Assembly (NCBI GenBank): GCA_963742415.1
Contig: CAVULX010000003.1
Span: 934,203-998,202, forward strand
DNA: 64,000 bases
Source of the DNA: an uncultured Parachlamydiaceae bacterium
GTDB lineage: Bacteria; Chlamydiota; Chlamydiia; Chlamydiales; Parachlamydiaceae
Direction of reading: 5' to 3'
The notes under the pieces are model-generated. The model saw only the letters and a list, made by a program, of their open reading frames with translations. It was not told the origin of the DNA and did not search any database. Positions 51,922 to 59,543 of this stretch are shown piece after piece. Made by a program: the position numbers and the translations under genes. Each line of letters starts with the position of its first letter. The first letter of the stretch is position 1.

Positions 51922-54900
51922 ATGCGAACGGTATATTTTGTTTTGCTGCTTCTATTTTCTTTTTCCTGTTATGCCATCGAAAATTCCGAGGACCTGGATG
52001 GATCGACATTAGTTGAGGAATCCAATAACCTTGATATTTTAGCTGGCGATCCTGAAACTTTTGTCTATCGCTGTGTCAATGTTGCCACAGGGGATTACAT
52101 CGACATCCAAACCGATTTAACGATCCCTGGAGCCGACCCATTAGAGCTCACAAGATTCTATTCTAGCGCTGACGAGAGGGCCTCTTCCCCTTTTCAAGCC
52201 TGGAAATTCAACCACGATATCACCGCTTTTCACCCTGTAAAAGGCTCCAAATCTTATCTCATCTTAAACGACTCTTTTGGCGCTCAAATTCCTTTTAAGC
52301 AGGAAAACCACACTTCTATGTGCTCCTACTATGGAGTCCATCCCAAAATATTCAAAAGGAGGATCGCAAATACCACACGGGAAATGAGTGGACGGTATCA
52401 TCTGAAAAATAAAAAACTGCTCCGGTCTGTGCATGATGAGATCCTCATTTCTAAAGATGGAGCCGGCTTTCAGTACCACTTTGAAAAGCCTCACAGCACA
52501 CACAAGGTGCCTATCAACCGATTGCTTAAGGCCAATGGCAACCAAGTTGAGTATAGTTATGATGCTGACAATAATTTGGCCACAGTTAGAGGATTAAACG
52601 CCCAAGGGGGCTTATTTGGCTGTTTGAGATTTAAACCACATTCCGGCTTTAGAGATGCCGACCCCTATTTTTTAGAGGTGGAGGATTCCCATTTCAATAG
52701 AGTCTCATACACGTTGCGGAATGTGAAATCGAAAAAAAAGAAAAAGTGGATTCTAGAACATGTACACCGCTATGATTCCCCGCCTGAGTCATACCGCTAT
52801 GACAGCGAATATGAAAGGATCATTCGCAAGGAGCTACCAGAAGGGCGCTTCCTTGAGATCGAATATTGGGATATAGGCCTTCCTAAACAGATTCATCCTT
52901 GCATCGAAGTCAGAAATTGTCATGGGAAAGTGAAAATGTTGCGCGCTCCTGCCGGAGTGGATGGATTCCCAATTCCCATTTACCAGTTTTCCTACGAGTT
53001 TGACTTGCATAGGACAAAGCCTGTCTATATGTACAACTGCAAAACTGTAGTCAAAGATGCTTATAACCATCAAACACTTTACTACTTCACTCCTGAGGAA
53101 CGTCTCAGCAAGATTGAAAAGTACAAAGCGGGATCATCGCCAACGTTGTATAGTCAGGAACAATTTTTTTGGGGACCGCAAGATACGCCTGACGCGGGCA
53201 ACATTTTGTCCAAAGTCTTGAGTTCAGATCAGGGTAAAGCGTGGTTATGCCGTACATATGCCTATGATGAGGCGGGCAATGTCACCGGCCAATGCTTGCA
53301 TGGCAACCTCACTGGAGCTAATTTAGTACCCTTGCAAGTGGATGAGAATGGGAAGCCGTTAGGCAATGGATGTGAATCATTGTATATCGGATATGAATAT
53401 ACGAAAGATGGACGCAATCTCTTGAAGTATGAAAACCACGCCTTCCATGACCACGATATTCTCTACGACTACTACGAGGGAACCGACTTAGTTAAAGCTA
53501 AATATGTTGTCGAAGGCACTTCAGTAAGAGTTCGGGAATTTTTTGACTATGATGAACATAGGGCCGTTACGATCCACATCATCGATGATGGTGCGTCGCT
53601 GGATCGAAATAGCCTAGTGGGTGTCACTGAAAGGCGGATAAAACGGATCCAAAATCTAAATGAATTTCCGTTAGGGCTTCCGGCTGTCATCGAAGAAAAA
53701 TATCTGGATGCTTCCGGAGAGGAGCAATTGCTCACGAAAAGAGTCAATGCATACGACCGAAAAGGAATGTTGGCAAAGCAAAGCATTTACGATAGCAATG
53801 ACCTTCTTAAGTATATTTTGGAATGGAAATACAACGAGCGTGGGCAGGTTGTCAAAGAGGCCAATGCTTTAGGGCAAGTCATCCGGAGAAAATATGACGC
53901 TAACGGCAACAAGATCTTTGAGCAGGGTCCAAACCAGGAGGTCCATCAGGAGTATGCCTATGACTTCATGAACCGATTGATCCGTCAAGAAGAGGTTTGG
54001 GCAGACAAAACCCGTTTAGTGCAAACATTTAAATACGATTATCTAGGAAATAAGATTGCCTCTACAGATATCCATGGAAATGAGACCCAATATGTGCATG
54101 ATCCCTTCGGAAGAGTGAAACAGATCTTGCATCCCGCTGTTCAGAATGAGCATGGGGAGTTTGTAACACCCACAACCTTAAAAGGATATGATATCCTCGG
54201 GAATGTGATTGGGATCACCGACCTCAATGGCGTAAAAACAACATCGTTTTACACCATCCACGGGAAACCTTTCCGCACCCACTACCCCGATGGCACAACA
54301 GAATATTTTCAATATACCCTCAAAGGGCAGTTGAAGAGATCTGTAGCGCGCAATGGCACGGCAACTGTGTATACTTATGATTACTTATCCCGCCCCATCC
54401 AAGAAGAGATGCTTGGGCCCGATGAAAATCTACTTTACCGGATCACCCGCCGCTATAATGCTTTCCATCTATTGGAGGAGACTGAAGCTGCAGGACATGT
54501 GACTGCCTATCGGTATGATGGCGCGGGCCGTTTGATGTGTGTTGAGAAAGGGGGCAGCAAAACGGAATATGTGTGCGATGCTTTAGGGCGGCGCAGTGAA
54601 AAAAGGGAATATTTGGGCTCAGGTCACTATATAGCGACAAGGTGGGGTTTTGATCTGCTTGATCGTGTGATCGAAGAGATTGTGACCGATTCTAAAGGGG
54701 TGGTTTATCGCACAACAGAATATGCGTACGATGAAGCGGGAAATCGGACTCAAGTCATTGCATCTAATCAGGCAGGGGTCTCCATTTCAAAGTGCAGCTA
54801 CAATCCCCATGGGGAACTAATTAAGTCGACCGATGCCTTAGGAAATACCAGCCGCTACTGCTACGATTATGCCTCGAATCGTGAGGAGATGATCGATCCC

Positions 54901-59434: not shown

Positions 59435-59543
59435 TAGAAATGAATCGCTGTGAATATATTTGAAGCGTATATTAGTTATGATGAAAAAAATAATAGAACA
59501 CATTGATTTCGCAGATTCTGAATATCACTCCATCACAACATAA
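59435..59543 (+). pseudogene. Truncated duplicate of the 57446 gene 5' end and its upstream DNA
   Basis: 59435-59539 aligns with 57403-57507; encodes MMKKIIEHIDFADSEYHSITT then stop. Confidence 0.8.

Follow-up and report, generated by a model that had tools for sequence, protein, structure and literature searches.

WapA of Bacillus subtilis is exported by means of a signal peptide and combines an RHS shell with a C-terminal toxin, an immunity gene, and orphan modules. The Sec-exported RHS toxins of Gram-positive bacteria also include WapA of Streptococcus suis (PMC12704120). Where Zhang et al. 2012 (PMC3482391) deal with chlamydiae, they place them under many RHS-borne toxins with trafficking labeled 'T2SS' (type II secretion system; Sec-type) and under the immunity families Imm14, Imm32, Imm53, and Imm54, and their remarks on amoeba symbionts attribute immunity-linked toxins to conflict between bacteria and not against the host. 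The part of that paper on polyimmunity defines polyimmunity loci and at that time gives loci of at least four genes only for proteobacteria, bacteroidetes, firmicutes, and actinobacteria. Other reports count RHS family proteins with the outer membrane proteins predicted for chlamydiae (Heinz et al. 2009, PMC2811131), describe Rhs-like proteins as forming a large orthogroup that Chlamydiaceae lack (Taylor-Brown et al. 2018, PMC6171736), mention the polymorphic toxin domains of Protochlamydia as a possible way of interfering with Legionella (König et al. 2019, PMC6520448), and list a Waddlia rhs gene among the Euo targets (de Barsy et al. 2016, PMC4989314). A search of the available literature, supplements excluded, turned up no experimental work on an RHS toxin from chlamydiae. 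Here, we analyze an RHS gene and the five small genes behind it (s1 to s5) in an uncultured Parachlamydiaceae bacterium, on a stretch of 64,000 nucleotides (G000:C3:934203-998202, referred to as the window) from a genome of 2.69 Mb on 4 contigs with a marker completeness of 84%. Plain positions are those of the window, and positions preceded by C2, C3, or C4 are those of contigs of the same genome. The locus is very probably a classical rhs polymorphic-toxin locus with a cognate immunity gene, displaced immunity genes, and export independent of a type VI secretion system (T6SS).

Results

An RHS protein with a predicted signal peptide and a variable tail

The RHS gene is a single uninterrupted frame of 5181 nucleotides encoding 1726 amino acids, and it is followed on the same strand by the five small open reading frames (ORFs) s1 to s5 (Table 1). 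The trafficking part of the protein consists of a signal peptide, predicted from hydrophobicity and the -3/-1 rule, and then DUF6531 only. At the N-terminus, a charged start (M-R) is followed by a hydrophobic run of 14 residues and by small residues at -3 and -1 (C-Y-A) before I20, and this is the sole place outside the C-terminal tail where a 19-residue Kyte-Doolittle window reaches at least 1.6. The same signal-peptide-like pattern was present in all four RHS N-termini of the genome and in 6 of 8 full-length RHS proteins elsewhere that carry the toxin tip of the window (tip A). A lipoprotein signal at Cys16 was considered and dropped, as the S-F-S before this residue does not fit the lipobox pattern. 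Pfam and NCBIfam found no PAAR, VgrG, or SpvB/TcdB-mid domain in the 1726 residues. Hydrophobicity, the -3/-1 residues, and both domain searches agree with an earlier note on this DNA, made from the sequence alone, which had described a cleavable-looking signal peptide and an N-terminus not of the PAAR/VgrG type.

The motif D-P-D-G-R-F at the end of the Rhs-associated core is, judging from family membership, the expected self-cleavage site. The chain continues behind it with a hydrophobic module, an acidic linker, and tip A. The hydrophobic module is kept in the tail of a paralog at C3:764388 and in a remnant at C3:591885. This remnant shares both module and linker with the RHS gene of the window and then carries a different tip; since the linker is common to both, the recombination joint lies at its end. 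A full-length paralog (G000:C3:686741-692215) aligns to residues 1-1554 at 39% identity, and the six Rhs cores of the genome bear at least four unrelated tails, so that the tip varies between paralogs with the same core. The GC content at third codon positions (GC3) drops along the RHS gene from 0.45 in the body to 0.36 in the module plus linker and 0.20 in the tip. The five small genes have GC contents of 0.29 to 0.38 and GC3 values of 0.17 to 0.34, compared with 0.45 and 0.45 in the RHS body. We count the low GC3 of the tip and small genes relative to the body in favor of cassette import, to which it would point.

Tip A as a probable polymorphic toxin domain of an unnamed family

A query with the last 108 amino acids against 1.84 billion representative proteins returned 530 clusters at E<=0.001. 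In the best 150 of the 530, all matches end at most 6 residues from the C-terminus, and the carriers range from 73 to 1906 amino acids. Among the 56 carriers scanned with Pfam, 21 had RHS repeats (7 of them with DUF6531), 1 had DUF6531 alone, 13 had TPR, and 21 had nothing, and no Pfam family fell on the tip itself in any of them. Such a spread of one C-terminal domain over many carrier types is the hallmark of a polymorphic toxin domain. The TPR-type carriers (P0041, P0055, P0072, and 10 others) are 450 to 690 amino acids long, with tip A at the end and without RHS repeats; an alanine/valine-rich hydrophobic stretch was also seen in 2 of 3 TPR-type carriers inspected.

Neither Pfam nor NCBIfam gave a match above the cut-off for the toxin tips or for any of s1, s2, s3, s4, and s5; weak rows for tip A were LPD3 (E 0.0017) and DUF4160 (E 0.27). 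As a lead, the nearest ESM Atlas feature neighbors of the tip are polymorphic-toxin clusters. The AlphaFold (AF2) model has one helix and five strands, with a predicted local distance difference test (pLDDT) score of 89.8. Foldseek of this model against PDB had no match at E<=0.001, and the best of the weaker rows that are of relevance were CdiA-CT 5t86_A (probability 0.99, TMq 0.50) and colicin D. A profile search of the tip against PDB sequences had 0 matches at E<=10. From these model comparisons, a solved relative of the tip cannot be claimed, and its absence would be no proof of a new fold.

Our best guess for tip A, a tentative one that falls a little short of an even chance, is that it may be a metal-dependent nuclease, which is suggested by its invariant R, D, and H-x3-H-x-H residues and by a weak fold likeness to small nuclease toxins. 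A weak structural neighbor is PT7(Bc) of the PT7(Bc)/PIM7(Bc) pair (PDB 8owu), with 62 of 76 residues aligned at an rmsd of 2.9. As the available account of that pair has it, PT7(Bc) is a C-terminal polymorphic toxin of about 76 amino acids in which a helix precedes a beta-sheet and an Asp and a His are essential, and its cognate immunity gene is small; tip A may resemble it in these features. The preprint describes PT7 as a metal-dependent DNase in which D37 and H47 are essential (bioRxiv 10.1101/2021.10.19.465003), and a nuclease is on this basis a reasonable guess and no more.

The s1 gene is paired with tip A across phyla

The s1 gene starts 14 nucleotides behind the RHS stop, and its product has 23 relatives besides itself in a large protein database. 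Screening a single genome for each prokaryote species gave 18 tip loci, which belong to Parachlamydiaceae, other Chlamydiae, Bacillota, Bacteroidetes, Brocadia, and Elusimicrobia. In 12 of these loci (Chlamydiae, Bacillota, Brocadia, and Elusimicrobia), the next ORF behind the tip matched a hidden Markov model (HMM) of the s1 family. Tip and s1 are 10 to 16 nucleotides apart or overlap slightly in 11 loci, and 367 nucleotides separate them in L030, which has a partial tip match; L019 has three s1 copies. In five loci whose tips are more divergent, another gene family, of 66 to 70 amino acids, stands near the tip, directly behind it in four and about 1.8 kb downstream, beyond a 264-amino-acid ORF, in L029. 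The remaining locus, L013, had a gene of neither family. The small downstream gene therefore varies together with the tip (s1 family in 12 loci, the other family in 5). A second tip/s1 pair is present in the genome itself at C3:764388-765197, with the tip 49% and s1 40% identical. The predicted structure of s1 has a pLDDT of 90.0, and a Foldseek search with it gave nothing at E<=0.001. From these sequence comparisons, the assignment of s1 as the putative cognate immunity gene of tip A is well supported.

Four further genes and the scars of lost toxins

All five small genes are real and conserved. The earlier note had described them as short, unrelated, co-oriented, and AT-rich, and the ORF list, the GC values given above, and tblastn, which found no mutual matches among s1 to s5, bear this out. 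The spacers within the array measure 55 to 137 nucleotides.

The partners of s4, s3, and s2 can be read from other loci. An s4 paralog, 76% identical, lies directly behind an intact ORF of a second tip (tip B, C3:592008-592361; region C3:592008-592935), and s4 homologs, present in 33 of 301 genomes of the order, stand behind toxin ends of the form ..IHYWEN..TG...FKFK.. in 5 of 13 loci elsewhere, plus L054. Homologs of s3 (25 of 301 genomes) follow a toxin C-terminus with ..PH-x-H-x-PG..N-x-DGTPWLPI.. (tip C) in 12 of 19 loci by regular expression and, with a variant motif, in L036. Tips A and C both have P-H-x-H; a kinship between them was considered and found unsupported (hhalign probability of 3.9%). 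Homologs of s2 (18 of 301 genomes) lie directly behind a toxin end of the type NPRHH-x-QHYHVE...GTGFLPGE in 8 of 15 loci from other genomes, and two s2 paralogs are present in other RHS loci of the same genome. Additionally, the array holds 3' ends of lost toxins, one of tip C and two of tip B, as well as the 3' end of an s5-like gene and, at its end, a stump of s2 (Table 1). The stump belongs to direct repeat D1 (113 nucleotides, 86% identical, at 57395-57507 and 59427-59539), which flanks s2 to s5, and its stop at 59543 coincides with the end of the feature as delimited in the earlier note. Interpretation of s2, s3, and s4 as displaced immunity genes of lost toxin cassettes is well supported by these sequence relationships.

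The s5 gene has homologs in 11 of 300 genomes of the order, where Imm53-like, s4-like, and s2-like genes and pieces of RHS accompany them in tandem arrays; its Pfam match to DUF2691 (E 0.004) is below the cut-off. A toxin-like ORF end lies directly upstream of s5 homologs in only 1 of 14 loci (L064). Mainly on its membership in such arrays, s5 is taken as a probable immunity gene. The comparative loci and the scars together support the layout of toxin, cognate immunity, and orphan immunity that had been proposed for the locus. The accompanying expectation that homologs of each small gene would sit behind different toxin C-termini elsewhere was borne out for s1 to s4 and weakly for s5.

Related genomes also contain long immunity arrays of one family (G213:C24:105810-112807, G221:C26:42150-45931, G277:C8:140092-147479, and G016:C2:401056-405115), made up of five to seven s5-like genes interleaved with Imm53-like genes, of six s2-like genes, or of four s4-like genes. 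In L048:829-1731 (G154:C25) and its sister copies on G154:C27, proteins of about 300 amino acids have an Imm53-like domain with an s3-like domain fused behind it, which makes them two-domain 'polyimmunity proteins' of a chlamydial genome.

Secretion genes in the genome and in the order

We searched the 4-contig genome for six marker families (TssC, Hcp, PAAR, Phage_GPD, Phage_sheath_1, and SpvB; TcA was not searched) and found none of them at the 84% completeness of the assembly. That the first five were not found agrees with the T6SS-independent export that the earlier note had suggested. At C3:667-671 kb, GspF is encoded together with a secretin, and C4 has a second secretin gene; with these encoded, a T2SS is available, and nothing ties it to the RHS protein. 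Across the order, the Rhs core was found in 253 of 301 genomes (252 above the cut-off) and TssC in 8 of 300. T6SS independence thus marks the group as a whole and is not specific to this locus. Of the eight genomes with TssC, G169 and G200 are not listed with an Rhs core as we read the two tables, and G169 is the sole genome without an Rhs core among the 24 of the window's own family.

Sister RHS loci

The other RHS loci of the genome are in various states. One is frameshifted (C3:876432-881510), one is N-terminally truncated (C3:762285-764942), and two are internally deleted (C3:590950-592361 and C4:931699-932535); Imm53 genes are found in sister loci with E values of 7e-28 and 1.3e-32. The N-terminus of the C3 deletion remnant (L007) is 94% identical to that of the window RHS protein, with residues 1-310 joined directly to the hydrophobic module and tip B. 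The two deletion remnants of the window gene, L007 (G000:C3:590594-592935) and L012 (G000:C4:931699-932889), also share the region upstream of the RHS gene from about 330 nucleotides before the start. This shared stretch holds the last codons of the gene upstream (..F-P-Q-S-E-I-N), with which pgk in the window ends, and so does an unrelated gene of 431 amino acids on C4.

The second intact RHS gene (in locus L011, G000:C3:686741-692721) encodes 1824 amino acids with a signal peptide and without the hydrophobic module. Its tail is lipase-like (G-S-S-Q-G-G; Cutinase at E 0.0047, below the cut-off), and the gene behind it encodes 168 amino acids with a predicted signal peptide containing L-A-C. 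Judging from these sequences, the pair would suit a toxin that acts in the periplasm and an immunity protein located there. Standalone relatives of the lipase-like tail are present at C3:568559-569185 and C2:155637-156065. The hydrophobic module thus occurs on tails paired with predicted cytoplasmic immunity proteins and is absent from the lipase-like tail paired with a predicted exported one, a contrast that, over a handful of cases, may serve as a lead.

Surroundings of the locus

Two TLC ATP/ADP translocase genes lie just downstream of the array, and the nearest named relatives of the tip are metagenome-assembled genomes (MAGs) of Parachlamydiaceae. These two observations make the chlamydial affiliation sound, and an intracellular lifestyle of the organism may be presumed from them. 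A palindrome of about 175 nucleotides at 51677-51852, just upstream of the RHS start, would form a single long hairpin of -82 kcal/mol as RNA. It has 86 genomic copies on all four contigs, 50 of them at least 140 nucleotides long, and it resembles a dispersed repeat of the MITE (miniature inverted-repeat transposable element) or REP (repetitive extragenic palindromic) type. The 78-amino-acid ORF at 51662-51898 is probably an artefact of this palindrome. A promoter and terminator scan of 51500-59700 gave counts equal to those of shuffled sequence and was uninformative.

Table 1. Features of the RHS locus and its right-hand border (positions in the window)
Feature	Position	Strand	Evidence or remark
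RHS polymorphic toxin gene, intact, 1726 amino acids	51922-57102	+	RHS_repeat PF05593 E 3e-65, 8 stretches; YD_repeat_2x TIGR01643 E 6.5e-43
Predicted Sec signal peptide, residues 1-19	51922-51978	+	Kyte-Doolittle 19-residue window 1.75 at residue 1; probable cleavage after C-Y-A
DUF6531 domain, residues 52-124, usual N-terminal domain of RHS class	52075-52293	+	Pfam E 1.3e-09 and 9.9e-11
Rhs-associated core, residues 1477-1557, ends in D-P-D-G-R-F	56350-56592	+	TIGR03696 E 8.1e-25
Hydrophobic module, two predicted membrane helices, residues ~1558-1604	56593-56733	+	Kyte-Doolittle windows >=1.6 starting at residues 1555-1570 and 1577-1586
Acidic Ser-rich linker, residues 1605-1648	56734-56865	+	conserved in remnant at C3:592008; sequences diverge beyond linker
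Tip A, residues 1649-1726, unnamed family	56866-57102	+	invariant R, D, P, H, H, H, W (alignment A1, 38 sequences)
s1, putative cognate immunity gene for tip A, 80 amino acids, no signal peptide	57117-57359	+	s1-family HMM behind tip in 12/18 loci
s2, putative orphan immunity gene, 113 amino acids from likely ATG 57446	57446-57787	+	TTG ORF from 57371 = 138 amino acids
Scar, last 9 codons and stop of lost tip B (R-E-G-F-K-F-K-N-K-stop)	57798-57827	+	29/29 nucleotides identical to C3:592332-592360
Scar, last 14 codons and stop of lost tip C toxin (..NNNDGTPWLPIKF-stop)	57820-57864	+	overlaps s3 start; C-terminal motif common to full toxins before s3 homologs (alignment A4)
s3, putative orphan immunity gene for tip C, 79 amino acids	57843-58082	+	behind tip C ends elsewhere
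Scar, 3' end of s5-like gene (L-G-K-L-D-Y-P-F-stop)	58095-58121	+	direct repeat D3, 93% identical to 59357-59385
Scar, second tip B 3' end (R-E-G-F-K-F-K-D-D-stop)	58178-58207	+	direct repeat D2; immediately before s4
s4, putative orphan immunity gene for tip B, 187 amino acids, Cys-rich C-terminus	58220-58783	+	paralog behind intact tip B ORF
s5, probable immunity gene, 159 amino acids	58904-59383	+	array membership
Truncated second copy of s2 5' region, end of array	59427-59543	+	21 codons, 59478-59543; direct repeat D1
AhpD/carboxymuconolactone decarboxylase-family gene	59556-59993	-	PF02627 E 5.4e-21; right-hand border of array, GC back to 0.40

Discussion

We propose that the 1726-residue precursor would cross the inner membrane by Sec, as its signal peptide suggests, that the RHS repeats would fold into a closed shell, and that the Rhs-associated core, if it behaves like its family, would cut the chain behind D-P-D-G-R-F. 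The freed tail of 169 residues would comprise the two-helix hydrophobic module, the acidic linker, and the unnamed tip of 78 residues. Export past the periplasm would have to proceed without T6SS, contractile injection system, or Tc-type partner, and the encoded T2SS would be the obvious candidate. The likeliest site of action of the tip is the cytoplasm of a target cell, with the hydrophobic module probably aiding its passage across a membrane and s1 presumably serving as the cognate cytoplasmic immunity protein. The s2, s3, s4, and probably s5 genes would represent the immunity of earlier cassettes, which recombination moved downstream while removing their tips and leaving scars.

Several observations weigh against this account or weaken it. 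No scar of the cognate toxin of s2 was seen in the window, and no toxin partner was identified for s5. At 84% completeness, missing secretion genes are no proof of absence. Decay is active in the genome, as several sister RHS genes are frameshifted or deleted. Finally, an organism that makes a host-directed toxin would need cytoplasmic immunity genes too if that toxin acted on bacterial substrates.

We lean toward other bacteria sharing the niche, rather than the host, as the target. The same type of tip/s1 pair in free-living Bacillota, Brocadia, and Elusimicrobia, the apparent retention of immunity genes after toxin loss, and the lipase-like tail of L011 with its predicted exported immunity protein all favor it. 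A host-directed effector, whose RHS shell would deliver the tip into a protist as Tc shell components do and whose small genes would protect the producer only, would suit a probably intracellular organism with two adjoining TLC transporters and an order in which Rhs cores are nearly universal (253/301), as expected of a host-interaction factor. The hydrophobic module could insert in a host membrane, and the weak structural neighbor PT7(Bc) is reported in the preprint to be toxic to yeast and bacteria (bioRxiv 10.1101/2021.10.19.465003). However, free-living anaerobes of other phyla have the tip and s1 pair, four immunity genes without toxins make sense only against toxins from other bacteria, and the SpvB-type TcB domain was found neither in the protein nor in the genome. 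Moreover, host-directed toxins of amoeba symbionts, as characterized in the relevant part of Zhang et al. 2012 (PMC3482391), are without adjacent immunity genes, and we consider a host effector unlikely.

The scars that fill the array and the frameshifted, truncated, or internally deleted sister loci would also be expected if the locus were a decaying or selfish relic, an addiction-like module or recombination debris with no present toxin export. That the window copy is one uninterrupted 5181-nucleotide frame with all parts present, keeps the invariant tip residues, and is followed after 14 nucleotides by an intact s1 makes this explanation improbable. Least probable is a structural protein of the surface or outer membrane, for example an adhesin, with the C-terminal tail as a membrane anchor. 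The two hydrophobic helices of the tail and the prediction of RHS family proteins as outer membrane proteins of chlamydiae (PMC2811131) would accord with it; however, the 78-residue tip occurs on RHS, TPR, and other carriers, always C-terminally among the matches listed, and is paired across phyla with a dedicated small gene, which an anchor would not need.

Environmental chlamydiae might more generally possess a dedicated Sec-started, T6SS-free RHS toxin route, in which the two-helix hydrophobic module behind the cleavage site carries cytoplasm-acting tips across the target membrane for warfare among bacteria sharing a host cell or its surroundings. The frequency of the Rhs core (253/301) against that of TssC (8/300), the immunity arrays of at least four genes in several genomes, and the contrast in the pairing of module and immunity point in this direction; we regard so broad a generalization as rather doubtful at present. 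The ecology and export route, which the earlier note had drawn as warfare between co-infecting symbionts inside a protist, are plausible and were already proposed in general terms in 2012. The novelty of that idea was overstated, because RHS toxins, Sec-type trafficking, and immunity families in chlamydiae, and bacterial conflict too, already appear in the corresponding passages of Zhang et al. 2012 (PMC3482391). Since polymorphic toxins of amoeba symbionts with immunity genes have been in print since then, our finding refines a known picture. What is new is limited to the unnamed tip and immunity families with clear pairings, the scarred displacement of cassettes, the hydrophobic module behind the cleavage site, and the contrast between Rhs and T6SS across the group. 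Four pairs could be entered in toxin and immunity catalogues, with s1, s4, s3, and s2 as the respective partners of tip A, tip B, tip C, and the NPRHH...GTGFLPGE tip. The locus also raises the question of how a diderm without T6SS exports a 190-kDa RHS shell and delivers its toxin, for which protist-dwelling chlamydiae are an unusual place of study.

Comparison with known systems

The locus shares features with several described systems and is set apart from each of them. The RHS shell, the self-cleavage motif of the core, the encapsulated C-terminal toxin, and the immunity gene are those of T6SS Rhs effectors (PAAR-Rhs, VgrG-loaded); however, a signal peptide takes the place of PAAR or pre-PAAR, and the 84%-complete genome gave no match to TssC, Hcp, or Phage_GPD. 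The TcB-TcC shell of Tc toxins differs in its SpvB/TcdB-mid domain, which Pfam did not find in the protein, and SpvB was not found in the 84%-complete genome (TcA lay outside this search). WapA has in common with the locus that a signal peptide stands in place of an injection machine, and it shares the RHS shell, the C-terminal toxin and its immunity gene, and the orphan modules. In contrast to WapA, the present producer has an outer membrane that a 190-kDa protein must pass and the RHS protein has a hydrophobic module behind the core, and Pfam found no cell-wall-binding domain in it.

Another close match is the Rhs/YD 'T2SS' class as outlined by Zhang et al. 2012 (PMC3482391), with which the locus shares a signal peptide, RHS repeats, the Rhs core, a variable C-terminal toxin, adjacent immunity, and displaced downstream cassettes. 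The array also resembles the heterogeneous polyimmunity locus, as worded in the definition in that paper, in having at least four unrelated tandem genes (here, five) on the same strand with short spacers. However, such a locus is toxin-free and uninterrupted, whereas the present array adjoins a full toxin gene and holds 3' scars of toxins; on its sequence, the array is best described as a regular polymorphic-toxin locus from which the orphan tips appear to have been trimmed away. The tip and s1 to s5 differ from the 2012 class in matching no Pfam toxin or immunity family above the cut-off, and polyimmunity of at least four genes now extends to chlamydiae, outside the four phyla named in the part of that paper dealing with such loci.

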